A stretch of 64,000 bases of DNA from an uncultured Acidobacteriota bacterium (lineage in GTDB: Bacteria; Acidobacteriota; Vicinamibacteria; Vicinamibacterales; UBA2999), in the NCBI GenBank assembly GCA_963741665.1, contig CAVUIM010000004.1:957122-1021121 (forward strand). The letters are read 5' to 3'. Positions 36,401-50,831 of this stretch are shown in pieces. The notes under the pieces were generated by a model, which made no database searches, was not told the origin of the DNA, and worked only from the letters and a program-made list of their open reading frames with translations. Positions within the stretch are counted from its first letter, which is position 1; each line of letters starts with the position of its first letter. Both the position numbers and the translations under genes were made by a program.

Positions 36401-37360
36401 ATGACTCACTATCCGCCAGCGCGTCGGGACATCCTGAAGCTCTCCGCCTGGGCCGCCGCGGCCGTGCCGCTGCTGGGCACGGGGCGCGGCGTCGCGGCCA
36501 CAGGCGGCGCCCCGGCCTACGACCCTGGCGCCAGCTTCGACCTCGACGTGACCGAGGTGGAGATGCGCCGCAACCGCGCCGGACGCCTGCTGATGGCTCG
36601 CGTCTACCGTCCGAAAGGGCCCGGGCCGTTCCCCGTGGTCCTCGACCTCCACGGCGGCGCCTGGAACCGCAAGGACCGGACGGCCGAAGAACCGATGGAC
36701 CGCGCCATCGCCGCCAGCGGCGTGCTGGTGGTGGCCATCGATCTCACCCTCGCTCCGGAGGCGCCGTATCCGGCGTCGGTGCAAGACGCCAACTACGGCG
36801 TGCGCTGGCTGAAATGGCAGGCGCCCACCTGGAACGGCGACGCCGCGCGGCTCGGCCTCTACGCCAGTTCGAGCGGCGGGCATGTGGCGCAGCTGCTCGC
36901 GATGCGTCCGCACGACCCGCGCTACAACGCGATTCCGCTCACCGGCGCCCCGCCGGTCGATGCCACCGTGGCCTTCGTCGCCATGCGCTCGCCGATCAGT
37001 GATCCCGTTGCCCGCTACGAGAACGCCGTGCGGCACAAGCGCGAGAGCATGATCGACAGCCACAAGACCTACTTCGTGCCGTGGGAGTCGATCCACGAGT
37101 CCAGCCCGCAGGCCATCCTCGAGCGCAAGGAGAAGGTGACGCTGCCGCCACTGCTGCTGATGCAGGGCGCGCTCGACGACAACGTGCTGCCGGCGGTGCA
37201 GGAGAGGTTCGCGGCCACCTACCGCGCTGCCGGCGGACACTGCCAGCTCGAGATTTTCGCCGGCAGCGAGCACGAATGGGTGGCCACGCCGGGCCCGCAG
37301 ACCGACCGCGCCCGGGCGATGGTGAAGGCCTTCATCGCCGAGCAGTTGCGGCGCACGTAG
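36401..37360 (+). CDS. alpha/beta-hydrolase fold esterase/lipase (HGGA/HGGG family), Tat-signal
   Basis: RRDILKLSAWAAAAVP Tat motif, oxyanion VVLDLHGGAW and nucleophile elbow YASSSGGH. Confidence 0.8.
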   Translation: MTHYPPARRDILKLSAWAAAAVPLLGTGRGVAATGGAPAYDPGASFDLDVTEVEMRRNRAGRLLMARVYRPKGPGPFPVVLDLHGGAWNRKDRTAEEPMDRAIAASGVLVVAIDLTLAPEAPYPASVQDANYGVRWLKWQAPTWNGDAARLGLYASSSGGHVAQLLAMRPHDPRYNAIPLTGAPPVDATVAFVAMRSPISDPVARYENAVRHKRESMIDSHKTYFVPWESIHESSPQAILERKEKVTLPPLLLMQGALDDNVLPAVQERFAATYRAAGGHCQLEIFAGSEHEWVATPGPQTDRARAMVKAFIAEQLRRT

Positions 37361-37398
37361 GTAGCGACTGGCCCGGCGCGTGCTGCCGCGACGGGCGG

Positions 37399-37749
37399 CT
37401 ACCGCGCGGCCGCCTTGAGTCGGCGCACCTTCAACGCGAGCGCCACGACCACGAGCAGGATGGCACCGAGCGACACGGCCAGGCCGCGCCTGCGGAAGGC
37501 CACTTCGTCCAGCGCGACCTGGCCAGCCGCGTCGACCCTGGCGGTGATGGCCAGGCCCTCCTGCAGCATCGTGCTCACCGGCGCCGGGTCGAACGCATGC
37601 ATCTCGGTCCGCGCCAGGGTCAGGTGGTTGCCCGCCTCGCGAAGCGCCAGCGACTGATCGCCCATGTCCATGCCGGCGTTCTCGGCCGACGCGACCAGGG
37701 TCGAGGACCGATCGATCGCGGTCTTCAGCGTCTCGATCCCGGTGCGCAT
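37399..37749 (-). CDS. small C-terminally membrane-anchored hypothetical protein
   Basis: ATG at 37749 gives MRTGIETLKTAIDRSS... and a C-terminal TM LAVSLGAILLVVVALALKV. Confidence 0.3.
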   Translation of the reverse strand: MRTGIETLKTAIDRSSTLVASAENAGMDMGDQSLALREAGNHLTLARTEMHAFDPAPVSTMLQEGLAITARVDAAGQVALDEVAFRRRGLAVSLGAILLVVVALALKVRRLKAAAR

Positions 37750-38720
37750 CGTCGTGGCCGCGCTTGATGTCCGTTGTCGCCCTCGCTGTGACAGGCGGAG
37801 CACAGCGCCGTGGCATCGGTGCCGAGCATCGCGTCGGTGGGCTTGGCGATCTCGTGGTTGCCGTGGCACTCCACGCAGCCGCGGTCGAAGATCTGGCTAT
37901 GCGTGCTCAGCGCGAACTTGGTGGCGAACACGGTGTGGCAGGTGCCGCAGACGTTGGCGACCGCGCCGACGCCCGGCGGCGCGGCGCCGTGATTGCCGTG
38001 GCAGTCGTTGCACGTTGGCGCCGACAAGTCATTGCGCTCGGTCATGGCCGCGTGATGCACGCTGTTCTCGTACTTCGCGCGCTGGTCGGTCGGCAGCGGA
38101 GAGCCGTCGGCCGCCGTGTAGCCCTTCATGCGCTCGGCGTCGGCGTGGCACTAGGTGCAGGTGGTCGCGACGTTCGCCGGATAGACCGGCGACTGGGCGT
38201 CGCCGACCAGCCGCACGCCGTGCGCGCCGTGGCAACTGACGCAGGTGGCGACGTTGGTGTCGCCCGTGGCCAGGCGCTGGCCGTGCACGCTGGTGGCGTA
38301 CTCGGTCGCCTGGTCGACGCGCTGCTTCGGGGCGTACTTCCGCATCAGCGCCGCGTCGCTGTGGCAACGCGAGCAGACGGCGATGACCGCCTGGCCCTCA
38401 GGCTTGCCGCGGAAGCCCGTCGGCGCCGCCTTCGCCTTCAGCTTGTCGGGCTCGCTGGCGTCGCCGCCGTGGCAATCGACGCAGCTGAAGCCCCGGTCGC
38501 GGTGGACGTCGGTGGCGGCGAAGTCGCGGGCCGGCGCCGCGAGATGCGCCGCGGTCTGGTCGCGATGGCAAGTCTGGCACGACGACACCGGTGCCGTCTG
38601 GGCGCCGGCTGGAGTCGCCCACGCCACGGCCGCCCACATCGCCGCGGCCACGCACAGTCGCCGCGCAGGCGACCAACGACCCGCCGGATGGTTCGCGTGT
38701 CTATGCGGCGACATAGCCAT
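37725..38720 (-). pseudogene. nona-heme c-type cytochrome; single frame interrupted by an in-frame TAG (38151-38153) that falls inside a CxxCH motif
   Basis: ORFs 38151..38720 and 37725..38129 are in the same frame, separated only by TAG. Heme motifs are CQTCH, CVDCH, CSRCH, CVSCH, C-T-TAG-C-H, CNDCH, CGTCH, CVECH and CSACH. Confidence 0.65.
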
Positions 38721-39784
38721 AGATGGTGAAGACGATGAGATAAATCACCGCGAGGACCCCCGCAGCAGTGATGAGCCGGTTGGGGCGCCCGGCGGCCGCT
38801 CCCGGGTCGAGGAACGGCACCACGACAATCAGCCCGGCAGCCAGGCCGAACCCCAGGACGCCCAGCATCTCGCCCTCGATCCCGAGCACGTGGCCGGAAT
38901 CAGCTTCAGCGTCTGGAACATCGCCAGGAAGTACCACTCCGGCCGGATGCCAGCCGGCACGGCCGCGAACGCGTCGGCCTTCTTGCCCAGCTCCCAGGGC
39001 AGGAACAGCGCCAGCGCTGCCAGCACCGCCAGCGCGACGTACCACCACATCACGTCGTGCAGCACGTAGTTGGGGAAGAACGGCTCCTGCGGGATGCGTC
39101 TCGCCGGCCTTCTCCCGCGCTCTCGACGCTCGGCGGCACGCTCATGCCCTGACGCTGGATGAGCAGCAGGTGCAGACCCGAGCAGGACGGTGGTGATCGC
39201 CGGAAGGATCGCGACGTGGATGCCCGTAGAAGCGCGTCAGCGTCGCGCCGGTCACGTCGTCGCCGCCGCGCAGGAAGCGGACCAGGAAGTCGCCGACGAC
39301 CGGCACGGCGCCGGCGATGCCGGTGCCGACCTTGGTCGCGAAGAACGCCAGCTCGTTCCACGGCAGGAGGTAGCCGCTGAAGCCGAAGCCCATCATGACG
39401 AAGAGCAGCAGCACGCCGGTGATCCACGTCAACTCGCGCGGCTTGCGATAGGCGCGGAGGAAGAACGTGCTGAACAGGTGAACGAACGCCATCAGGATGA
39501 GCAGGTTGGCCGACCAGCTGTGCACGTTGCGGATCAGCCAGCCGAACTGGCACCTGGCTGACGATGAACTTGACGCTCTCGTAGGCCTCGCTGGCGCTCG
39601 GCCGGTAGTAGAGCAGCAGCAGGATGCCGGTGGCCACCTGGACGCCCACCAGGAACAGCGTGATGCCGCCCATGAAATACCAGACGCTGTGCCGGTGCAC
39701 GGGCACGCTCTTCTCGGCCACGAACGCGCGAAGCGCGCTGAGGTCGAGCCGCTCGTCGAGCCATGCGTAGACGCGCTCGGTCAT
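38701..39784 (-). pseudogene. cytochrome b (bc/b6f-type, fused with subunit IV-like C-terminus); at least five frame changes
   Basis: Recognisable cytochrome b segments are distributed over three frames: [26 protein letters not shown] ... [15 protein letters not shown] ... [22 protein letters not shown] ... [16 protein letters not shown] | [10 protein letters not shown] ... PEWYFLAMFQTLKLIP | HVLGIEGEMLGVLGFGLAAGLIVVVPFLDP. Confidence 0.6.
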
Positions 39785-39799
39785 GGCGCTCCAGGGCGT

Positions 39800-40282
39800 T
39801 CAGGTCCGCGAGATCACGACGTCTTCGTGGCCGGGCTCGCCGCGCAGATTGACCGCGAACGCATCGAGGGGCCGGGGCGGCGGCCCCGAGACGACGTTGC
39901 CGGACAGGTCGTACAGCCCGTTGTGGCAGGCGCACCAGATCTGCGACGTGTCGGCCTGGTACTGCACGGTGCAGTCGAGGTGGGTGCAGACGGCGGTGAA
40001 CGCCTTGAACTGCCCGTCGCTCGTCCGCACCAGGATGGCCGGCTTGGTGCCGAACTTGACGACCGCGCCGGTGTTGGGCTTGAACTCGGCGGCCTTGCCG
40101 GCGACGACGCTGTCGGTGGCCGGCTCGGCGGTGGCCGGCGGAATCACGTACCGCCAGACCGGGTAGAAGACCGACAGGGCGGTCGAGACGAACCCGAAAC
40201 CGAGCACCGTGTCCAGGAACGACCGTCGAGGCGAAGCCACCACGTCCGGACCTCCGACTGGAAGCCTGCCGTCACCACCCAT
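39800..40282 (-). CDS. Rieske [2Fe-2S] iron-sulfur protein of a cytochrome bc-type complex
   Basis: SPRRSFLDTVLGF Tat/TM anchor and the two cluster-binding boxes CTHLDC and CACHNG. The listed ATG at 40282 overlaps the barrel-gene stop by 11 nt (an alternative GTG start lies at about 40234). Confidence 0.85.
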   Translation of the reverse strand: MGGDGRLPVGGPDVVASPRRSFLDTVLGFGFVSTALSVFYPVWRYVIPPATAEPATDSVVAGKAAEFKPNTGAVVKFGTKPAILVRTSDGQFKAFTAVCTHLDCTVQYQADTSQIWCACHNGLYDLSGNVVSGPPPRPLDAFAVNLRGEPGHEDVVISRT

Positions 40283-42470
40283 AGGTGAGCCGGACGAAGC
40301 CGGCGTGGGCCGTGTAGGGACGATAGAGATAGCCGAGCAGCAGCGCGTTGGTGGCAGCCACCGGAGCGCCCTCCTGCACCGGCGGGAACGCGATGCCGGT
40401 GAGGGTCGTCGGTCCGAGCGCGAAATCCTGCACGTTGTAGTCGTCGAACCAGTAGGCGACGCCGAGCCTGAGATTCCGCGACAGCTCGTAGCTCAGGTCG
40501 ATCTCCGAGCGCAGCAGCTCGTTCTTCACGGGCGGCAGCTGCTCGGGCACGGCCAGCGGGGAGCCGGCGACCAGACCGTAGAGATAGGTGTCGTTCGACC
40601 GGTTCCAGTCCACCGAGAGGCGGACGGTCGTCCGCTCGATGGCTTCGGCGATGTCGAGGGCCGCCTCGAGGAAGTGCACCTTGCCGGTGAAATCGGTGGT
40701 CCAGTCGCGGATGGGATTGGCCTGTTCAGCGGCGGAAGTCGCGTTGCGGGATCGCTGGAGGGAACGGTAGCGCTCCCAGCCGTAGCTGGTGGTCAGGCTG
40801 TAGCGATCGTCGGGAACCACACTGACGCCGGCCGAGTACTGATCGGAGTCGAACGACAGCAGGCCGTGGGTGCTGTCGGGATACTCGTCGCGCCCGATGC
40901 CGGCCGAGGCGGTCAAGCCGAAGATGCCCCCCGGCGTCACGTTGGCGATCAGCGTCAACCGCTGCCGGTCGCGATCGGCGATGTCGTAGTGACGCAGCCC
41001 GGCCAGCTCGCCGACTTCTTCCAGGGCCCCGGCCTCGAAGCCGTCGCCCTCGCGCTGCCGGTTCTCGTAGACGCCGCGCAGCATCACGTACTGGTTGCCG
41101 GTGGTGTCGACCGACAGCCGGAAGACATTCTCGGCGGTGCTTTCCCAGATGCGGCTCGTGTAATCGGTACCCAGGTGGCTGAAGCCCACCTTGATCGACG
41201 TCGACGGCACGACCTGGAACGCGCCATCGGCGTCGAACGTCGAACGCTTCACGCTGTGGTACTGCGACGAGCCGGCGACCGCCTGGAAGCTCGAGTCGTA
41301 GGCGACCGTGCCGCCTGGGCGGTCGAAGATTGGCGTCTGCACGTCGACGTCGGCGTAGCGGTACTTCGCGTTGAACGACAGCAGACGGGCCGGCCGGGCA
41401 GCGAAGGTCAGCTGCGCGATGGTCATCTGGTGGGTGGCGTCGGCGGTCGGCCGCGCCAGCGCGATCGGGGCAATCGCGGTGTTGATGGTGAAGGGCAGCA
41501 GATCCTGGTTGCTGCGCCCCTGTCCCACCGCCAGATAGCCGGTCAGCCGCCCGCGCGCCGGCAGAGTCATCGATCCGGTGCCGTGCAGGTAGTTGAGGGT
41601 GTTGCCTGGCCACAGCGCCATCCGCCCCTGTGACGGCGTCGCCGCGAGATCGGGCCCGAAGCGCAGCGGGTTGTCCCAGGTGACGCTCTCGACGGAATTG
41701 TGGAACGCCGAGCCATCCCAGCCGACGCGCAGCAGGCCCCTGGTGTTGGCCCACTCGAGCGCCGTCTGGATGTCGGTGGTCCGCGTATCGATCGGCACCG
41801 GCAACTCGACGGCGTTGTTGAAGCCGAACGTCCCGCCGAACGGAATCGCGCCCTCGCGGGTGGTGTTCCTCACCTTGACCAGCACGTCGGTGGACCGATC
41901 GACGTTGAAGACGATATCGGCCTGGCCGATCTTGCGCAGCGTCCGGACGTCGAAACGAACGGCCTGGTCGTCGAAGTTCCGCAGCGTCTTCGTTCCTGCC
42001 TGGATCTCCTGCTGCAGGCCGTCTTCGAGCCGGAAGACCCCGGCCGACGACGCGGTGTACAGCGTGCGGGTGTCGCGGCTGATGAACATGGGAATCTGAT
42101 CCCACAAGAACGACACCGACAGGCGCCCGACCCGCTGGAAGTCGACCTGATACCGCTGGTCGCGGTAGCCGGCGTTCCACGCCTGGCCTTCGAGGTTCCA
42201 CTCTTCGGTGCGCCGACCGATCAGCGCGTTGTTGCCGTAGATGCCGGGCCGCAAGTCGCGGTAGCGCTGGAATCGAGCCTGGTCGCCGTCGGTTTCGTTC
42301 AACCGGGCGCCGAAGTCGATCGTGCCGTACAGCTTGCCGCTCATCTCGCTGCGGCCGACCTCGACCGGGTCGGTGCGGGCCGGCAGCGTCGGGGGGGTCT
42401 GCGCCGATGCGCTCACTGCGGTGAGCAGGACGAGCGTCGCGGCGGTCGTGAGTGTGTGACGCATGGCCAT
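40272..42470 (-). CDS. MtrB/PioB-family outer-membrane beta-barrel (porin component of a porin-cytochrome conduit), 732 aa
   Basis: ATG at 42470 (RBS GGGAGATGG) lies 6 nt after the decaheme cytochrome stop. It has the signal peptide MAMRHTLTTAATLVLLTAVSASAQ, about 700 aa of alternating Y/W-rich strands and a C-terminal RLTYGW. It is the 3' part of listed ORF 40272..43613. Confidence 0.6.
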   Translation of the reverse strand: MAMRHTLTTAATLVLLTAVSASAQTPPTLPARTDPVEVGRSEMSGKLYGTIDFGARLNETDGDQARFQRYRDLRPGIYGNNALIGRRTEEWNLEGQAWNAGYRDQRYQVDFQRVGRLSVSFLWDQIPMFISRDTRTLYTASSAGVFRLEDGLQQEIQAGTKTLRNFDDQAVRFDVRTLRKIGQADIVFNVDRSTDVLVKVRNTTREGAIPFGGTFGFNNAVELPVPIDTRTTDIQTALEWANTRGLLRVGWDGSAFHNSVESVTWDNPLRFGPDLAATPSQGRMALWPGNTLNYLHGTGSMTLPARGRLTGYLAVGQGRSNQDLLPFTINTAIAPIALARPTADATHQMTIAQLTFAARPARLLSFNAKYRYADVDVQTPIFDRPGGTVAYDSSFQAVAGSSQYHSVKRSTFDADGAFQVVPSTSIKVGFSHLGTDYTSRIWESTAENVFRLSVDTTGNQYVMLRGVYENRQREGDGFEAGALEEVGELAGLRHYDIADRDRQRLTLIANVTPGGIFGLTASAGIGRDEYPDSTHGLLSFDSDQYSAGVSVVPDDRYSLTTSYGWERYRSLQRSRNATSAAEQANPIRDWTTDFTGKVHFLEAALDIAEAIERTTVRLSVDWNRSNDTYLYGLVAGSPLAVPEQLPPVKNELLRSEIDLSYELSRNLRLGVAYWFDDYNVQDFALGPTTLTGIAFPPVQEGAPVAATNALLLGYLYRPYTAHAGFVRLTYGW

Positions 42471-42475
42471 CTCCC

Positions 42476-43454
42476 CTACTGCCGCAGGAAGGTCGCGCCC
42501 GCGGGGTGATTGGACCCATGGATGGCCGCGTGACAGGTCACGCAGCTGCGACTGAACAGCCGGTTGCTGGTCTGCAGGACTCGGTTGTCGTAGATCGTCG
42601 AGGGGTGGCGCGTGTGATTGTGGCAGCGCTGACAGAGGAACGGCAGCTTGGCCACCAGCATGCGATCGTTGTTCGAGCCGTGCGGGTCGTGACAGGTCGC
42701 GCAGCTCTCGCCGTTGATCCCGGCGTGCTCGAACAGGAACGGGCCGCGCTTCTCGGCGTGGCAGCTCGCGCACGACTCGTTGACGGTGTTGCCGGCCTTG
42801 AGCAGGCGCACGTTGGTCGAGCCGTGCGGGTTGTGACACGACGTGCATTCCATCTTGCCCTCGCGCACCGGCATGTGTCCCGAGCGGTCGAGCTTCGCCA
42901 CCTTGTCGCGATGGCAGGTCATGCACTGCTGCTGCTGATTGACTGCTTTGAGCTGCGAACTCCGCCGACTTGGGCTTGTGGACGCTGTGGCAGCTCACGC
43001 ACGAGACGTTGCGCGATTCATGCTGACTGCCTTTCCACAGCGCATGGGTGCCGCGGTTGTGGCAGGTGACGCAGGTGTCGGTCACCTCACTGGCGGCGAT
43101 CCGGTCGAACTGGCGGGGCTTGACCTTCTCGGGATCGCTGGCGTGGGCCTCCCCCGGCCCGTGGCAGCTTTCGCACCCCTGCGCGGCCCAGGGCGATCGC
43201 GGGTCCTTCGCTTGACCGTGTTTGGTGGCCTTGATCGACGCCTCGTAGCCTTCGTGGCAGGTGGCGCAAGCCTCGGCGCCGATATACCCAGGCTGGGGGG
43301 TGGCCGGCGCCGTCTGTGCGGCGGGGGGGGCGGCCGGGCCGTCGCTGGACGGCGGCGGCGCGACCGCCGCGGTCTTGACCGCGGTCGCGGCCAGAGTGCC
43401 GGCGAACAGCAACGCGGCCGCGACGTTCAACAACGTGACGGAGCGTAGTCTCAC
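42476..43454 (-). pseudogene. MtrA/PioA-like periplasmic decaheme c-type cytochrome (about 326 aa, 10 CxxCH); 1-nt frame change near 42925-42940
   Basis: GTG start at 43454 (RBS AAAGAGG) gives MRLRSVTLLNVAAALLFAG signal, then CATCH, CESCH, CVTCH, CVSCH in one frame. After a CAG-run the +1 frame continues QQQCMTCH, CTSCH, CASCH, CATCH, CQRCH, CVTCH (ORF 42476..42922). Confidence 0.6.
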
Positions 43455-43477
43455 GATCGGCCTCTTTCGCGAATCCA

Positions 43478-43816
43478 CTACACCTTCTTCTTGGCGGCGA
43501 GAAACGTGACCAAGGCGTCCAGATCCTCCTTGGGCAAGCTGGGAAAAGCCCGCATTGCCGGTTTCCTGATGGCTTTCGCCGCCGCCGCCATGTCGGCCGG
43601 CGTGACGATCCACTTGCGGATGTCGTCGGCGCTGAGTTTGGTCCCGACCCCGTCGAGCGGCCCCTTCGCGTTGCCCTGGCCGTCAAGCGAATGGCATAGC
43701 GAGCACCGCTGGGCGGCGAACACCGCTGCGCCCTTGTCCTGGGCCCGCGCGTCAGCCACCGGGGCAGCCAACCACATCAGCGCGACTACCCCGCCCACTC
43801 GAAGGATGCCAGTCAT
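43478..43816 (-). CDS. monoheme class-I cytochrome c, secreted (112 aa)
   Basis: ATG at 43816 (RBS GGAGG) gives signal MTGILRVGGVVALMWLAAPVADA, the heme site CSLCH, and a distal Met region. Confidence 0.75.
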   Translation of the reverse strand: MTGILRVGGVVALMWLAAPVADARAQDKGAAVFAAQRCSLCHSLDGQGNAKGPLDGVGTKLSADDIRKWIVTPADMAAAAKAIRKPAMRAFPSLPKEDLDALVTFLAAKKKV

Positions 43817-44028
43817 CGCCCGCCTCCCAACTCTGAACGCCACTGCCTGCAACAACACTGCCGTCGCCCTACGGCGCGCCGGCGGGGCCTGCGGCGGGCA
43901 ACCGGGAACATTCCCGCGCCGACGCGGGGAAGAGTCCCCAGGCTCGCCGTCGGTGACGACGTCGACCTCCCCTTCTGGCGCTGGGCACCCTCGGAGTGAT
44001 CGAGTGGCGCGCGCCCCGACGCTAACCG

Positions 44029-46968
44029 TTAGAACTCGAACTGCAGCGACAACTGCGCCGCACGGGCGGCCTGGCGGTTCTGCCCGCGGAACGTGCCGTC
44101 GGGCGCGTAGGCGAAAGCTGCACTGCCGATCAGGTTGCTGCCGGTATTGACCCCGTCGCCGCCCAGGAATTCCTGCAACGCGTCGCGGTTGGTGATGTTC
44201 AGCACGCTGAGGGCGATATCGAGCTTCCGGCCGCCGAGCGCGAACCGCCGGCCGACGCGCGCGTTCCACTGCGCCAGGCTGGGCGCCTGCCGCTGCCCCT
44301 CGCCGCGCGTGGCGTACGCGAACCGGACGGTCGTCGCCAAGGGGTTCGACACGGTCCGCCCGTTCGACAGGACCAGCGTCGGCGGACCGAACTGCGGGTC
44401 GGGCGCTGCCAGGAGGGTAACGATCGGGCCGGTGTACGGTCCCGAGAAGACGTTCAGGTTGCTGGAGAGCGTGAGCCCCCACGGTGCGTTGTACGAGCCG
44501 GCGAGACGCAGCGCGTGCTTGATCCACATCGGGTTGCGCGACAGCGACGTGCCCGACAGGCTGTTGTTTTCGCCGCCACGGATCGAGCCGATGCCGCGAT
44601 TGTTGGCGAACGCCGTGGTTTGGATGAACGCCGCCGGGTCGTTCGGTTGCCACGTCCCGTCGAGGTGCTGGAAGCCGCGCGTGTAGCCGACGATGAACTG
44701 CGAACGGCCCGTCCGCTGAGCGCCGATGACCTCCACCCCCGTGTAGATCGGCGTGTTCCACACGTTGTTGGTCTGGAGCAGGATGGCGTTCTGGGACTCG
44801 TCCGCGTAGCCGCGAAACACGCCGTCCGTATAGATGCCGTTGACGTCGATCTGGGCGGGCATGTCCTTGTAAGCACGCCGGATGAAGGTCGCGTCCAGGC
44901 TGATCTGGCCGGGCAGCTGGCGCCGATAGCCGAGCAGGATCTCGTCGGTGAACGGCTGATGCCGGTCCGGATCGACGCGCCGGTTGGCCGCCACCTGGGT
45001 CTGGGCGGGCGTCACCAGCACGGTCGCAAAGCTCCCGTCGCCACGGGTGTCGTAGGTGTCGGTCGTCGTCACCGTGACGCCACCCCCGAAGAAGCCACCC
45101 CCCAAGGTCGGCAGGTACAGCCACTCCGGCTTGGCGGCAAGGCGGCTGAAGCTCCCGTGGACGATGTTCCGGCTGTCGGCCGTCACGGCGTAGACCGCAC
45201 CCACCCGCGGGCCGACCTCCAGACTCGACTGCGTCCGCACGCCGAACAGGTCGTCATCGTCGACCACGCGCTCGACGCGCAGACCACCGACGAGGGTCAA
45301 TCGCGGCACCGGCTTCCAGGCGTCCTGGACGTAGACGGCGTAGTTCTGGGAATTTCTCTTTTCAGTGGTGAATACCAACCGGGTTGGATCGACGAACTGA
45401 CGATGGAAGGGGATGTAGCCCGAGAACGGATCTCCCGGGACGCGCAGTCGAACATCCTCGAGGGTGAAGCCGCCATTCAGGTAGTTCGCTTCGGTGCTCA
45501 ACCGCATCACCGGCTGGAGAAAAGCCCCCGCCTGGAACTCATGAGAGCCCAACCAGCCCGCGCGGTACCAGTTCACGTCGGCCTGCACGGTGAGCTTGCT
45601 CGACGGCGTGACGTTGAAGCTCTGGTTGTTGCCAACAGTGGCGACCAGGCCGTTGCCGACCAGCCGTCCCGCCGACGTGGCGACCGAGTCGTAGATGCGC
45701 ACCCGCGGGCCGCCGTAGTCGAGGCCCTTGAAGGCCGCGAGCGACGTTCTGCCGCCGAACGTGTTGAACGAGGCGCCGACGGTCGTCGTCAGCGTGTTGG
45801 TCCACGCCGAGAAGAGCCGTGCGGCGGCGCCGTTGCCCGTCGTGCCGCTGTTGCTGAAGCGGCGGCTGTCCGTGGACGCACTGGGCTCCTCGAAGCCGTG
45901 CGGTTTCAGGAAGAATCCGTGCAGCTGATGTCGAGCGCGCAGCTGGGCGTTGACCTTGACGAATCCCGTATGGTGCCGGCTGCGGTTGTCGAACGGCTCC
46001 CACCCGGGGATCGACCCTCGGAGGTTGTTCAACTGGGTCGGGGTGCGTGAGATCTGACTGTTGCGGTGGAGGTAGAAATACGACGCGAAGAACCACGCGC
46101 GATCGCGCCGAATCGGCCCGCCAAGCGCTGCCTCGAGGTCCGTGGTTTCGGCAATCGCCGGCACACCGAGCGGGTCGTTGTCGGCGTTCCAGCCGCGATT
46201 CTGATGATGGACTCCTGCCGACCCTGCCAGCCGGTTGGTCCCGACCCTCGTCGTCACGTTGAACACCACGCCCAGCCCCGCCGGCGCCGACGCATCGGCA
46301 CCGCCGGTCCGCACCTGGGAATCCGCGATGGCGTTGGTGGGAAGCCTGACGATCTCCATGCGTCCTTGACGGGACGACGCCATGTCGGCGCCGTCGATCA
46401 GCACCACGTGCTGCTCGACATCGGTGCCGCGCAGCATGTAGGTCTGGGTGCCGTTGTTGGCAATGAGGTTGCGGGCCGTCACCCCCGGAGTCACCTCGAG
46501 AGCGTCGGTGAGGTCGCGTCGGGTCGACAGCGGCAGCAGGCGCTGGAAATCGCCGGCGACGTTGACGGCCTGAATCGGCTTGTGCGATTCGAGCAATGGC
46601 GGCGCGCCGCTGACGACGATGGTCTCTTCGACGCTGCCGACCGCAAGGACGATGTCGAGGGTGAGGTTGAGCCCGGCCCGGACCTCGACGCGTTGCTGCG
46701 CATACTTGGTGAAACCCGCCAGCTCGGCGACGACGTCGAAGACGGCGGGCGGCAGGTTCAGGAGGCGATAGGTGCCGTCGGACTCGGTGACACTGACATG
46801 CGTGCCCGGGATGGTCGCGCTCACCGCGGTCACAGTGACCCCGGGCAGCACCCCGCCGCCAGCGTCGCGGACCACACCCCGCACCGTGCCTTCACTGGCG
46901 ATCTGCGCGTCCACGGGTCCCGCCGTCAGGAACACCAGCACGGCCACCACGCTGAGGCGTCGGCGCAT
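44029..46968 (-). CDS. TonB-dependent receptor with carboxypeptidase-regulatory-like N-terminal domain (979 aa)
   Basis: ATG at 46968 (RBS GGAGGGAG) gives MRRRLSVVAVLVFLTAGPVDAQ. CarboxypepD_reg-like GTVRGVVRDAGGGVLPGVTVTAVSATIPGTHVSVTESDGTYRLLNLP, plug, and a C-terminal LSLQFEF. Confidence 0.85.
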   Translation of the reverse strand: MRRRLSVVAVLVFLTAGPVDAQIASEGTVRGVVRDAGGGVLPGVTVTAVSATIPGTHVSVTESDGTYRLLNLPPAVFDVVAELAGFTKYAQQRVEVRAGLNLTLDIVLAVGSVEETIVVSGAPPLLESHKPIQAVNVAGDFQRLLPLSTRRDLTDALEVTPGVTARNLIANNGTQTYMLRGTDVEQHVVLIDGADMASSRQGRMEIVRLPTNAIADSQVRTGGADASAPAGLGVVFNVTTRVGTNRLAGSAGVHHQNRGWNADNDPLGVPAIAETTDLEAALGGPIRRDRAWFFASYFYLHRNSQISRTPTQLNNLRGSIPGWEPFDNRSRHHTGFVKVNAQLRARHQLHGFFLKPHGFEEPSASTDSRRFSNSGTTGNGAAARLFSAWTNTLTTTVGASFNTFGGRTSLAAFKGLDYGGPRVRIYDSVATSAGRLVGNGLVATVGNNQSFNVTPSSKLTVQADVNWYRAGWLGSHEFQAGAFLQPVMRLSTEANYLNGGFTLEDVRLRVPGDPFSGYIPFHRQFVDPTRLVFTTEKRNSQNYAVYVQDAWKPVPRLTLVGGLRVERVVDDDDLFGVRTQSSLEVGPRVGAVYAVTADSRNIVHGSFSRLAAKPEWLYLPTLGGGFFGGGVTVTTTDTYDTRGDGSFATVLVTPAQTQVAANRRVDPDRHQPFTDEILLGYRRQLPGQISLDATFIRRAYKDMPAQIDVNGIYTDGVFRGYADESQNAILLQTNNVWNTPIYTGVEVIGAQRTGRSQFIVGYTRGFQHLDGTWQPNDPAAFIQTTAFANNRGIGSIRGGENNSLSGTSLSRNPMWIKHALRLAGSYNAPWGLTLSSNLNVFSGPYTGPIVTLLAAPDPQFGPPTLVLSNGRTVSNPLATTVRFAYATRGEGQRQAPSLAQWNARVGRRFALGGRKLDIALSVLNITNRDALQEFLGGDGVNTGSNLIGSAAFAYAPDGTFRGQNRQAARAAQLSLQFEF

Positions 46969-47191
46969 CGTCACTCCCTCCTGTGGCAGACGTCGATCCA
47001 GGAACACAGCCAGATCGCCGGGGCCACCTCGCGTTGGGCCGATCACGGCCACGGGACGGCTGGACAGAGGCGGGCGCAGTATAGTCGACCGGCCTCGGCC
47101 AATGGAGGTGATGCGACGCACGCAGGTTCTACGGAAATAGGCGCAGAAGCCGGCCGGGAGCTATCAGTCGAAGAAACGGCGAAGCTCACGT

Positions 47192-47833
47192 ATGATGACG
47201 CCATCGGCGACCATGCCTGAGCGCATGAGCACGAGCGACACGGCTCCAGACGACGTCAGCGCGCTGCTTCGGGCATGGACCGCAGGCGACCAGCAGGCGC
47301 TCGCCCGGCTCACCCCGATCGTCTACGGCGAGCTCCACCGTCTGGCGCACTACTACCTGAAGCGCGAGCGGGCCGGCCACAGCCTGCAGACGACCGCGCT
47401 CGTCAACGAAGCCTATCTGCGGCTGGTCGACTACAAGCGCATGCAGTGGCAGAACCGGGCGCATTTCATGGCGGCGGCGGCGCAGGCCATCCGCCGCATC
47501 CTCGTCGATCACGCGCGGCGGCGCAACGCCAAGCGGGGCGCGAACGCACCGCATGTCTCGCTCGATGCCGAGGCGCTGCTCTGCCCCGATCGCTGCGACG
47601 ACTTCGGGTTCCTGGACGACGCCCTGAACGCCCTGGCGGCGCGGGCGCCGCGCAAGGCGAAGGTCGTCGAGCTGCGCTTCTTCGGCGGCCTGAGTGTCGA
47701 GGACACCGCCGACGTGCTGCGCGTCTCGCCGATCACCGTGATGCGCGAGTGGAAGAGCGCCAAGGCCTGGCTGTACCGCGAGCTGACCGGCGAGGATGGC
47801 AATGGACGGCGACCGCTGGCACCAGGTCGATAG
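47192..47833 (+). CDS. ECF-type RNA polymerase sigma factor (of the class found next to Ser/Thr kinases)
   Basis: Region 2 ([38 protein letters not shown]) and region 4 HTH ([28 protein letters not shown]). The 3' end overlaps the kinase start by 38 nt. Confidence 0.8.
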
Positions 47834-50831
47834 GCTGCTGCAGTCCGCCCTCGACGTTCCCCCGGCGGAGCGCGATGTCTTTCTACGGAACGCCTGCGGC
47901 GGCGACGGTCCGCTCGAACGCGACGTCCGCTCGCTGCTCGCTGCACACGACCGTGCCGACGGATTCCTCGACGCCCCGGCGATCGACCTTGCCGCGCGGG
48001 GGCTCGCCGGCGAGCCGGACGCCAAGGACGGCCGGGCCGCCCCGTCGACTTCGCTCAGGGCAAGCGGCGATCCGCTGATCGGCCAGACGTTCTCGCACTA
48101 CCGCATCGTCGGCAGGCTCGGCGGCGGCGGGATGGGCGTGGTCTACAAAGCCGAGGATGGGCGGCTGCACCGTCCTGTGGCGCTGAAGTTCGTCGCCGGC
48201 GATCTGGCGAGTGACGCCGAGGCCCTGAGCCGCTTTCAGCGTGAAGCACGCACCGCCTCGGCACTCAACCATCCACACATCTGCACCATCTACGACATCG
48301 GCGAGCAGAACGGACGCGCGTTCATCGCCATGGAGTATCTCGAAGGCGAGACGCTGAAGGATCGACTCGCAGCCGGTCCCCTTGCACTCGAGACGGTGCT
48401 GCGGCTCGGGGTCCAGATCGCCGACGCCCTCGACGTCGCTCACAGCGCGAACATCATCCACCGCGACATCAAGCCGGCGAACATATTCATCACCGCGCGC
48501 GGGCATGCCAAGCTCCTCGACTTCGGTCTGGCGAAGCTGGGCCCAGCCATCTCACCCCAGGCAGACGTCACGACCGCGGCCGGGACGATGCAGGGTGTCG
48601 TGATGGGCACGGTCGCCTACATGGCGCCTGAGCAGGCGCGCGGCGGGACGGTCGATCACCGCGCCGACCTCTACAGCGTCGGCCTGGTGCTGTACGAAAT
48701 GGCCATGGGCACGCGGCCGGCACCTGCCGTTCAGCTGCGGGTCGAGCACTCGCCCGATCTGGAACGCGTCATCTCGAAGTGCCTGGAGACGGATCCCCAG
48801 CTTCGGTATCGGCACGCCGCCGACCTGCGCACCGATCTCGGGCGCCTGACGAGTGGACCGAGCTCAGCGGCCGCCACCACACCTCAGGGGCCCGGTCGGA
48901 TGCGCCGGTACCTCGTCGTGGCTGCCGGCCTGGCCGCGGCAGTCTTCGTCGGCGCCTACGTCTTCGCGCCGCGGGCGGCGACGCTGACCGACAAGGACAC
49001 CCTCGTGCTCGCCGAATTCGCCAACACGACCGGCGACCCGGTATTCGATGGCACGCTACGCCAGGGGCTCGCGGCCCAGCTCCAGCAGTCTCCGTTTCTC
49101 AGCCTGGTGTCGGACGCGCGCATCGTGAAGACGCTGGCGCTGATGCAGCAGCCGCCGGACGCGCGGCTGACGCCGGAGATCGCCCACGGTGTGTGCGCCC
49201 GGACTGCCAGCGCCGTGGTGCTCGATGGATCGATCGGCAGCCTGGGTAGTCAGTACATCCTCTCCCTGCGGGCGAGAAACTGCTCCACCGGCGACATTCT
49301 CGCCGACGAGCAGGCGCAGGTCGCGCGCAAGGAGGATGTTCTTGGCTCCCTGAGTGAGATGGCCACCCAGGTCCGTGAGCGGCTCGGCGAATCGGTCGCC
49401 ACCATCGAGAAATACTCCAGACCGCTGCAGGAAGCGACCACGGCGTCCCTGGACGCCTTGAAAGCCTTCACCACCGCCAGGCAGGTGTACGGGTCATCCG
49501 GCCGTGGGCGGGCCCAACCGCTGTTCGAGCGTGCCATCGCGCTCGACCCCGACTTCGCGCTCGCGCATGCCCAGCTCGGGATCTTCTACAGCAACGAGGG
49601 CGAGTCGGCGCTGTCGCGGCAGAGCACGATCAAGGCGTATCAGTTGCGTCATCGCGCCAGCGACGCCGAGCGATTTTTCATCGAGACGGTGTACGACCGG
49701 CAGGTGACCGGCAACATGGACCGGGAGATGGAGACGCTGGACGCGTGGGCGCAGAGCTACCCGCGCGATAGCATTCCGCACGGATTGCTGGCCGGCTTCG
49801 CCACGCGGAGCACCGGCCGATACGAGGAGTCGGTCGCCGCGGCCGACCGGTCGATGGCACGTGATCCCGAGGGTGGCTCCGCCGCTTCGACCAACAGCAA
49901 GGCGTACGCGGAACTTCACCTGAATCGACTGGACGCGGTCGAAGCGACCATCCGTCGGGCCGAAGAGCTCAAGCTGGACTCTGAGTTTGCCGTGATTCGC
50001 TACTTCATCGCGTTCTTGCACGGCGATGGCGAGGGCGTGGCCCAGCAGGCCGCGAAGGCTCGAGCCAGCCGCTCGACCGAAGACTTGATCTCGCATCTCG
50101 AAGCGCTGCGCCTGGCGGGCGCCGCCCGGCTCCAGGATGCCAGGCGGACATCCGCGACTGCCGCCGCCATCGCGAAGCAGTCTCGCAAACTCGAACGGGC
50201 GGCGTTATTCGAATCGGCCACCGCGGTGTGGGAGGCGCTCTACGGCAATCAGGCGGCAGCCCGACAGAAGGCCACCGAGACGCTCGCGCTCGGCCGGGGC
50301 CGCGAGGTCGACTATGCGGCCGCCTTCGCGCTGGCCGTGTCCGGTGACGTGTCACGGGCGCGCGCGCTCGCCGACCAGCTGGCCCGCGACTATCCGGAGG
50401 ACACGTCGGTGCAGTTCATGTACCTGCCGACGCTTCGCGCCCTGTTCGCCCTGGAGGCCCGTGATGCGGCAGCGGCGATTCGGTCGATGGAGACGGCCTC
50501 CCGCTTCGATCTCGCCCTGGGCGGCATCGGCTTCAACGCGCATTTCGGCAAGCTGTATCCGATCTACGTTCGCGGTCTGGCCTACCTGGCGGCGCGGCAG
50601 CCGGCACAGGCCGCCGCCGAGTTCCAGCGGATCGTCGAACATCGCGGCATCGTCCTCGTCGATCCCATCGACGCGTTTGCACGCCTGCAGCTGGCGCGGG
50701 CGCTGGCGCTCGCCGGCGACCCCGCGAAGGCGAAGCTCGTCTACGGCGACCTCTTCACGCTGTGGAAGGACGCCGACCCGGAACTGACGGTCCTCAGGGA
50801 GGCGCGGTCGGAGCACGCGCGACTGCCGTGA
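47796..50831 (+). CDS. Ser/Thr protein kinase - single TM - periplasmic domain - TPR repeats (paralog 1, 1011 aa)
   Basis: Hanks motifs [30 protein letters not shown] and APEQ. TM at [23 protein letters not shown]-terminal TPRs. Confidence 0.9.

Follow-up and report, generated by a model that had tools for sequence, protein, structure and literature searches.

How does an electron conduit that spans the outer membrane reach the quinone pool at the inner membrane? The known Mtr, Mto and Pio conduits do so through simple quinol dehydrogenases that conserve no energy (CymA, or proteins of the MtoC/CbcL type), and to our knowledge a Rieske/cytochrome b complex has not been described as their inner-membrane terminus in either use, extracellular respiration or electron uptake. 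A different answer is raised by a cluster of six tightly packed genes on the minus strand (43816-37399) of a 64,000-nucleotide (nt) stretch, here called the window, from an uncultured soil acidobacterium of the order Vicinamibacterales (contig CAVUIM010000004.1, positions 957,122 to 1,021,121). The GC content of the window is about 69%. Three-frame translation and alignment to relatives give the order, 5′ to 3′, monoheme cytochrome c, decaheme cytochrome, MtrB/PioB barrel, Rieske protein, cytochrome b and nonaheme cytochrome. The cluster probably is a functional operon encoding an envelope-spanning route for electrons, with an outer-membrane conduit and a Rieske/cytochrome b complex as its two coupled modules. 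The genes are as follows (aa, amino acids).

43478-43816, minus strand: monoheme class I cytochrome c, 112 aa; PF00034/PF13442, signal peptide, one CSLCH motif.
About 42476-43478, minus strand: periplasmic decaheme cytochrome of the DmsE/MtrA/MtoA/PioA family; TIGR03508, ten CxxCH motifs, start at GTG 43478 or GTG 43454.
40272-42470, minus strand: outer-membrane beta-barrel of the MtrB/PioB family, 732 aa, intact; PF11854, signal peptide, 26 predicted strands.
39800-40243, minus strand: b6f-type Rieske [2Fe-2S] subunit, 147 aa from GTG 40243; PF00355.
38701-39784, minus strand: fused cytochrome b6 and subunit-IV-like protein, 359 aa after frame correction; PRK03735, PF00033, PF13631, PF00032.
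37399-38720, minus strand: nonaheme c-type cytochrome, about 412-439 aa; nine CxxCH motifs, signal peptide, C-terminal transmembrane helix.

The successive intergenic gaps of -1, 5, 28, 15 and -20 nt fit a single transcription unit. An earlier note on this DNA, made from the letters alone, had named these genes and their order on the minus strand, and strong family matches bear both out. It had counted seven genes; what it called a small membrane protein (37399-37770) is the C-terminal part of the nonaheme cytochrome, comprising the stalk and the membrane anchor, which a 2-nt insertion at 37763-37762 has cut from the rest. As the anchor belongs to the nonaheme, the cluster comprises six genes and ends at 37399 instead of 37725.

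The conduit and the quinone-active complex

The decaheme cytochrome scores 252.8 bits against the DmsE family model TIGR03508 (cut-off 192.2) and matches MtrA (6r2q_A) nearly end to end (residues 9-321, E=1.4e-56). Removal of a single inserted base gives the full count of ten CxxCH motifs, and its description as MtrA-like holds. The barrel gene starts 5 nt past the decaheme stop, in an order that is the same in 17 of 17 genome loci. Its product is truly of the MtrB/PioB type. The match to PF11854 (MtrB_PioB) covers profile positions 3-635 of 635 at 260.9 bits (gathering score 23). TIGR03509, the model that the earlier note had proposed as a check, gives 219.2 bits over profile positions 12-627 of 662 (E=1e-64), just below its cut-off of 240.05; this small shortfall is as expected for a divergent acidobacterial branch. 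The sequence match to MtrB (6r2q_B) has E=4e-10. An AlphaFold2 model built from 46 homologues shows 26 strands by DSSP at moderate confidence (pLDDT 67, pTM 0.61), and its top Foldseek match in the PDB is again 6r2q_B (E=3.4e-26, TMt 0.72, about 16% identity in the structural alignment), followed by 22-strand TonB receptors (E>=1e-9, TM about 0.4). Orthologous barrels that are 92-67% identical carry the name 'MtrB/PioB family' at NCBI and JGI.

No open reading frame (ORF) outside the operon in the 64-kb window has more than one CxxCH motif, and the window is therefore without an MtrC/OmcA-type gene for a surface cytochrome; none is called within 10 kb of the operon in the related loci L022-L024 either. 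A CymA-type gene (NapC/NirT/NrfH) is absent from the window operon, where the monoheme stop abuts the decaheme start. The conduit belongs to the MtrAB/MtoAB/PioAB kind and not to MtrCAB.

The monoheme cytochrome scores 37.8 bits against PF00034 and 35.8 bits against PF13442. Its best sequence matches in a PDB-wide phmmer search (E<=1) are the c domains of the alternative complex III (ACIII) subunit ActA, of caa3 subunit II and of CcoP, together with c552-type chains. An identical protein is encoded on the Logan contig L018 (run ERR11593397), the only match in look-ups of exact products; the barrel, the Rieske protein in three start variants and a downstream hydrolase have no identical record there. 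Identity with MtoD was considered and rejected: the same search gave no MtoD chain, from a database that we take to contain an MtoD structure, and only the position in the operon is shared.

In the Rieske protein a twin-arginine (Tat) motif, SPRRSFLD, goes with an anchor helix at the N terminus, and both cluster-binding boxes, CTHLDC and CACHNG, are present. The protein scores 54.3 bits against PF00355; b6f PetC models lead its NCBIfam matches, with scores short of their cut-offs. Translation most likely starts at GTG 40243, because orthologues are called at 147 aa and a GGAGG is placed 7 nt upstream. This start lies 28 nt past the barrel stop, and the overlap of the two genes that had been described disappears.

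Cytochrome b is intact and 359 aa long in its homologues. It scores 261.7 bits against the cytochrome b6 model PRK03735, 38.7 bits against the PetD model and 215.6 bits against the ExtP model NF040969 (its second-best NCBIfam match, below the cut-off of 290), has Pfam matches to PF00033, PF13631 and PF00032, and matches spinach b6 (6rqf_I) with E=2e-64. Four heme-ligand histidines form two pairs 14 residues apart, and all four align to b6. The Qo motif PEWY (IRPEWYF) sits in the subunit-IV-like part, and a phenylalanine occupies the position of the heme ci cysteine of b6 (WYFMGG versus FYCLGG).

The operon contains no gene for cytochrome c1 or cytochrome f, and the nonaheme cytochrome stands in that place. 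Its nine CxxCH motifs are invariant in 34 homologues, in each of which it is one continuous protein that includes the stalk and the anchor. In an AlphaFold2 model of the orthologue P0260 (pLDDT 78), with helices at 289-320, 326-348 and 351-411, the heme domain is predicted to be held on a three-helix stalk by the C-terminal transmembrane anchor. The protein has no PDB match by sequence or fold (the best fold match, NrfA with E=0.1, is not significant) and no NCBIfam equivalog, and its more than 7000 relatives carry generic names only.

By sequence, the inner-membrane module appears to be a Rieske/cytochrome b complex that is neither a bc1 nor a b6f complex in the strict sense. With b6f and other Rieske/cytochrome b complexes it shares the b6-like spacing of 14 residues between the helix D histidines (13 in bc1), the PEWY motif in the subunit-IV-like part and a PetC-like Rieske protein. 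It differs from b6f in that b6 and subunit IV are fused, the heme ci cysteine is gone and a nonaheme cytochrome replaces cytochrome f or c1. Other members of this broad group are the heliobacterial bc complex and the anammox and deltaproteobacterial complexes with multiheme subunits.

A mechanism can be proposed from these parts. The Rieske protein and the fused b6/subunit IV would pass electrons to or from the quinone pool at the inner membrane, forming one quinone-active complex with the nonaheme as the analogue of c1 or f. Like c1 and f, the nonaheme has a C-terminal anchor, and its modelled stalk would extend the hemes into the periplasm towards the decaheme. At the outer membrane the decaheme would be threaded through the 26-strand barrel, with no MtrC-type surface cytochrome. 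The soluble monoheme, probably with histidine/methionine ligands, likely shuttles between both ends and to terminal oxidases. Such a path would in principle be reversible: it may oxidise quinol and carry the electrons outward, or take electrons up from Fe(II), minerals or humics and pass them to oxidases or, driven by the proton motive force (pmf), back to the quinone pool. The complete quinone-to-surface wire of the earlier note, with its electron transfer steps, is inferred from gene linkage; inferred likewise are a coupling of the modules, be it physical or functional, the part played by the nonaheme and the way in which electrons would flow.

Two known layouts come nearest, that of the Geobacter ext cluster and that of the mtoD-mtoA-mtoB-cymA operon, if Rieske/cytochrome b genes are put where cymA stands. 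The operon mtoD-mtoA-mtoB-cymA of Sideroxydans lithotrophicus ES-1 and the mtoABCD genes of Gallionella ES-2 and Dechloromonas likewise begin with a monoheme, followed by a decaheme and then an MtrB/PioB barrel, with no MtrC (PMC5566968). The mto operons also encode a quinone-active inner-membrane partner, which is swapped between lineages and can be CymA, the nonaheme MtoC or Cytbc (PMC5566968). Here, in contrast, three subunits, among them a stalked nonaheme, would make up a partner of the Rieske/cytochrome b6 type, no similarity to MtoD is detectable in the monoheme, and the host is an acidobacterium and not a betaproteobacterial iron oxidiser.

In Geobacter sulfurreducens, the conserved cluster extHIJKLMNOPQS encodes a porin-cytochrome conduit along with the Rieske protein ExtO, a cytochrome b, ExtP, and several multiheme cytochromes (PMC5877670). 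The porin ExtI is smaller and of another barrel family than the MtrAB-type conduit described here, and the cluster has its own cytochromes ExtKL and a rhodanese; cytochrome b in the window differs from ExtP in its fusion to a subunit-IV part. The layout had been called non-canonical for Shewanella, Geobacter and Rhodopseudomonas, which needs qualifying: the ext cluster is a precedent in which Rieske and cytochrome b genes go with a porin-cytochrome conduit, built on an unrelated porin (PMC5877670).

The other conduits differ more. Compared with Shewanella MtrCAB (6R2Q), the decaheme of the window is homologous to MtrA and its 26-strand barrel to MtrB in sequence and fold; the MtrC/OmcA surface decaheme and CymA of that system are missing from the window. 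PioABC of Rhodopseudomonas palustris TIE-1 is likewise an MtrC-less decaheme with an MtrB/PioB barrel, used there for electron uptake. PioC, however, is a high-potential iron-sulfur protein (HiPIP) and not a c-type cytochrome, the pio operon lacks a quinone-active complex, and PioA is extended by a long stretch at its N terminus. Acidobacteria are reported to have homologues of PioA and PioB (PMC10654088). A survey (Baker et al.), which covers Acidobacteriia only where they have MtrCAB, found no quinone oxidoreductase or inner-membrane partner nearby (PMC8805035). In Acidithiobacillus ferrooxidans a bc1 complex dedicated to uphill electron flow, petI, is genetically tied to iron oxidation, with a c-type cytochrome feeding it (PMC10654088). 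That operon lies apart from Cyc2, a fused porin-cytochrome, encodes a canonical cytochrome c1 and belongs to an acidophile. A literature search found no paper on the operon described here and none that ties Vicinamibacterales to Mto-type genes. The kind of conduit, the swapping of partners and the ext precedent were already known; what appears to be new here is the joining of a Rieske/cytochrome b complex with a nonaheme to an MtrAB/MtoAB-type conduit.

Linkage of the two modules in related loci

About 20 related loci (designated by L-numbers), all of them in metagenome-assembled genomes (MAGs) or metagenome contigs and, where named, mostly Vicinamibacterales MAGs, share this gene set, with no gene broken and none missing as far as the contigs reach. 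This synteny bears out the linkage of the conduit to Rieske/cytochrome b. When one genome per species was scanned, a close homologue of the barrel turned up at 17 loci, each in a MAG and most labelled Vicinamibacterales. In seven of these (L001, L002, L004-L007 and L010) the barrel gene is directly followed by those for the Rieske protein, cytochrome b and the nonaheme, every one of which keeps one frame. The same six genes, again each in one frame, are found in L001, L002, L022-L024 and L083; the copies in L022-L024 (on 12 contigs, in a different neighbourhood) and L083 were reached by looking up homologues of cytochrome b and of the barrel. Further metagenome contigs with the arrangement are L028, L030, L032, L036, L051 and L078, and L041 has the same gene set in permuted order. 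The conduit itself is common in Vicinamibacterales MAGs (of 1122 barrel relatives found, none among the top 120 falls below 65% identity), and the view that the locus is unusual for an Acidobacteriota-like genome does not hold.

Some relatives extend the set. An additional gene in L004-L007, L010, L028 and L051 encodes a membrane-anchored pentaheme protein of the NapC/NirT/NrfH type, 451-466 aa long, with matches to PF03264 and TIGR03153; it lies between the monoheme and decaheme genes (L005:7578-8933, and likewise L008:7518-8918) and is missing from the window, L001, L002 and L022-L024. Its presence beside Rieske/cytochrome b means that some operons carry two different quinone-active modules. 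In L008, L011 and L016 the NapC-like gene occurs with no Rieske/cytochrome b; a 344-aa nonaheme is followed there by an FdnI/cytochrome b561-like protein (L008:5669-7518), and this pair looks like a split quinone module of the MtoC/CbcL type. The inner-membrane partner of the conduit is modular between relatives.

Neighbour joining of cytochrome b puts the conduit-linked genes into essentially one clade, with trios of Rieske, cytochrome b and nonaheme genes that lack a conduit in sister clades. The apparent exceptions within the linked clade leave this pattern intact: they are L027, which has another conduit upstream, L029, with a gene inserted upstream, and L049, which is too truncated to judge; L026 has upstream genes as in L027, on a contig that ends before any conduit could show. 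In the basal locus L019 (7215-14067; cytochrome b 72% identical) the trio and the MtrB/decaheme pair are convergent neighbours. Because the conduit-linked cytochrome b genes form essentially one clade, the linkage is non-random. It is a conserved, selected arrangement and not a one-off.

The same loci hold several side observations. In L019 a SoxA/TsdA-like diheme cytochrome replaces the monoheme, and the Rieske gene appears to be split into small ORFs. In L027 (1-8000), whose upstream genes L026 (1-4300) shares, a second, distant conduit with a barrel about 30% identical precedes genes for an 8-heme cytochrome, for a 4Fe-4S protein and for a membrane protein like NrfD; this ACIII/Qrc-like module stands upstream of the Rieske/cytochrome b/nonaheme trio, bringing three respiratory modules together. 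The titles of L002, L015, L016, L017, L004 and L009 carry implausible taxonomy ('uncultured Bifidobacteriaceae', 'uncultured cyanobacterium', 'Acidimicrobiia'). The DNA of these oddly titled MAG records is 70-87% identical to the window, and their operon is the same as in the loci labelled Vicinamibacterales.

Around the operon itself, a weak terminator-like hairpin with a T-rich tail at 43860-43875 (minus strand), in a scan that overall did not exceed shuffled controls, lies between a TonB-dependent receptor gene and the monoheme gene and fits an operon start at the latter. Over 37000-47400 the scan detected nothing that resembles a promoter, and sites resembling terminators were about as frequent as in shuffled controls, a result that is uninformative for a GC-rich, non-enteric genome. 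The receptor gene (44029-47121) was considered as a member of the operon and rejected: it is syntenic in L002, and unrelated genes are found there in L022-L024. Divergent from it, an ORF for an extracytoplasmic function (ECF)-type sigma factor overlaps the start of a gene for a 1011-aa Ser/Thr kinase with TPR-like repeats (47192-50831, plus strand), a pair that gives no sign of a tie to the operon.

Frame lesions in this copy

Alignment to the closest relatives reveals nine lesions, eight indels and one TAG codon, that are private to this sequence. They hit three of the six genes, and not four of seven as had been thought.

42956, minus strand: decaheme, one inserted G, GAGTTC[G]CAGCTC, absent from L018, L001, L002 and L083.
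38893-39548, minus strand: cytochrome b, +1 at 39548, 39221, 39176, 39121 and 39096, -1 at 38893, from alignment to relatives.
38151-38153, minus strand: nonaheme, in-frame TAG where the second X of CxxCH motif five should be (C-T-*-C-H), a sense codon in homologues.
37762-37763, minus strand: nonaheme, 2-nt insertion at a point where all homologues are continuous.

All lesion contexts are non-homopolymer. The residue at the TAG position varies among homologues (S/T/K/R/Q/A/G), and if the serine of P0260, the closest nonaheme homologue (92%), is encoded by TCG, a single base change would give TAG. Recoding of this codon was rejected since it is TAG and not TGA, the position is variable and it is a sense codon in all 33 homologues. 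Programmed frameshifting was also rejected, with six indels in one gene that are all absent from close relatives.

The nine lesions are very probably assembly errors, presumably of long-read MAG assembly, and not gene decay. This reading is drawn from L018, L083 and L084, from purifying selection, from frameshifts elsewhere in the window and from breaks in two related loci. L018 equals the window over 1212 bp at 100% identity, except that the inserted G at 42956 is missing. L083 (JGI, 95% nucleotide identity), the relative against which the cytochrome b lesions were compared, has none of the six insertions that it spans and ends before the deletion site at 38893. L084 (97.7% identity) shows zero indels over 2771 bp. 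When the frame-corrected genes are compared with those of L001 and L002, the ratio of nonsynonymous to synonymous substitution rates (dN/dS) comes to 0.08 in cytochrome b, to 0.10 in both decaheme and barrel and to 0.17-0.25 in the nonaheme; over all six genes it lies between 0.06 and 0.25, at dS values up to 0.9. The most damaged gene, cytochrome b, is the most constrained. A frame model based on third-position GC finds about five further unexplained frame switches elsewhere in the window.

About 14650 (plus strand), 19101 (plus strand), 22863 (minus strand), 58862 (plus strand) and 61087 (minus strand): probable frameshifts outside the operon, each a switch of third-position GC frame with no nearby stop.

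The genes at these points resemble TonB-dependent receptor, TPR, caspase, RCC1-repeat and SRPBCC genes, and protein-like translation goes on in the new frame, which suggests that the assembly as a whole is error-prone. The long-read MAG loci L009 and L017 have frame breaks of a like kind.

Readings of the locus and what they would mean

Several observations weigh against a functional operon with coupled modules. About half of the close barrel relatives (L003, L008, L009, L011, L012, L014, L015 and L017) have no Rieske/cytochrome b downstream, and the Rieske/cytochrome b/nonaheme trio is common where no conduit is present (L020, L034, L035, L037, L040, L044, L047 and L048). The trio may be the ordinary complex III of this lineage that adjoins a conduit. 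Multiheme cytochromes with mostly bis-histidine hemes are usually low-potential, which is awkward with a Rieske partner. The lesions are concentrated in the operon relative to the window background (Poisson P~1e-7; ~1e-9 for cytochrome b), and only the decaheme lesion has been compared with an identical independent sequence; among the cluster members of the best matches there is no identical intact cytochrome b, the closest differing at 15 residues.

The sequence does not decide the direction of electron flow. Uptake of electrons or Fe(II) oxidation, as with MtoAB and PioAB, is a plausible, still tentative use of the path. The decaheme would be reduced by Fe(II), reduced minerals or humics outside the cell, the monoheme would feed aa3 or cbb3 oxidases, and Rieske/cytochrome b, reversed by the pmf in the manner of petI, would refill the quinone and NADH pools. 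The lack of an MtrC/OmcA-type gene in the window and within 10 kb in L022 is in keeping with this, as iron oxidisers lack MtrC according to the FeGenie paper; yet an MtrC-less MtrAB can still serve reduction, as in Magnetospirillum, MtoA complements a Shewanella mtrA mutant, and the FeGenie authors are cautious about dividing MtoAB and MtrAB into oxidisers and reducers (PMC7005843). The monoheme gene heads the operon as mtoD does, and MtoD has been proposed as a relay from MtoA to inner-membrane partners (PMC5566968). The similarity of the monoheme to c domains that feed oxidases also speaks for uptake, and a bc1 complex tied genetically to iron oxidation is known (PMC10654088). On the other side, no genes for carbon fixation or other lithotrophy were found near the operon. 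A route from outside to oxidases needs no Rieske/cytochrome b, and uptake of this sort explains the linkage only partly.

Extracellular respiration is possible too, if rather less than likely. Here Rieske/cytochrome b would oxidise quinol by a Q cycle and pass electrons through the nonaheme, and possibly the monoheme, to the decaheme; from there, at low oxygen, they would leave for Fe(III) in soluble or chelated form, Mn(III/IV), humic quinones or a partner cell. All six products fit this one linear path, and quinol oxidation is the normal direction of Rieske/cytochrome b complexes; the difficulties are that low-potential bis-histidine hemes are poorly served by a Rieske centre as donor, that no surface cytochrome is present for reaching solid minerals, and that the cultured members of the class are aerobes. 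Unlinked trios often adjoin a monoheme cytochrome c (L035, L037, L039, L040, L047 and L049), which suggests that the nonaheme normally hands electrons to c-type carriers. In Geobacter a Rieske/cytochrome b pair lies within a porin-cytochrome cluster that is implicated in selenite and tellurite reduction (PMC5877670), and the window's cytochrome b scores, below the cut-off, against the model of its ExtP. Several relatives add a quinol dehydrogenase of the NapC/NrfH type, a point in favour that is offset by the CymA-type genes of the iron oxidiser Sideroxydans (PMC5566968).

Either use could rest on a dedicated branch of Rieske/b6-type complexes. Such a branch may, as a tentative proposal, be monophyletic, with a stalked nonaheme 'wire' in place of c1 or f that docks on an MtrAB-type conduit directly or through the monoheme, and would provide the abundant aerobic Vicinamibacterales of soil and sediment with energy-conserving Q-cycle respiration to the outside or with pmf-driven electron uptake from Fe(II) or minerals.

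It is improbable that the modules are neighbours with no coupling, the trio being a housekeeping complex III with the monoheme as its ordinary acceptor and the conduit having been inserted beside it to work with other partners; their transcription as one unit would then mean nothing for the mechanism. The wide occurrence of conduit-less trios, down to 45-57% cytochrome b identity, is what this would predict, as is the use of NapC-like or MtoC-like modules by many close barrel relatives. It would leave unexplained that the linked cytochrome b genes cluster in essentially one clade instead of being scattered, that the arrangement with its gaps of -20 to 28 nt has been kept over dS of about 0.9, and that the linkage survives the rearrangement in L041 and the convergent layout in the basal L019.

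A dead locus, with all nine lesions real and the cluster being lost in this strain, is very unlikely: for it speak the spread of the lesions over three of six genes, with a nonsense codon that is untypical of long-read indel errors, their clustering in the operon and the non-homopolymer contexts of the insertions, but the decaheme insertion is missing from the otherwise identical L018, a corrected cytochrome b with 95% aa identity to relatives and a dN/dS of 0.08 is incompatible with the time needed for six neutral indels, all but one of the eight indels add bases, against the bias of bacterial gene decay to deletion, other genes of the window are frameshifted too, and the locus is neither absent nor degraded in relatives, those at 95% and 97.7% identity being intact.

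The coupled operon remains the probable reading, and its value is mainly that of a testable hypothesis on how an outer-membrane conduit meets an energy-converting quinone complex in abundant soil bacteria. The apparent pseudogenes at this locus are also a warning on frame errors in long-read MAGs. The nonaheme subunit represents a large family with neither a name nor a solved structure. Uphill electron flow in iron oxidisers is still argued from genes that lie apart, and a conduit, a soluble cytochrome c and Rieske/cytochrome b in one operon would make the uphill link directly testable. Such an operon would imply a different energy balance for extracellular electron transfer. Vicinamibacterales are common in soils, sediments and groundwater and are usually treated as plain aerobic heterotrophs; if the path works, they would join the organisms able to drive the redox cycling of iron, manganese or humic substances.

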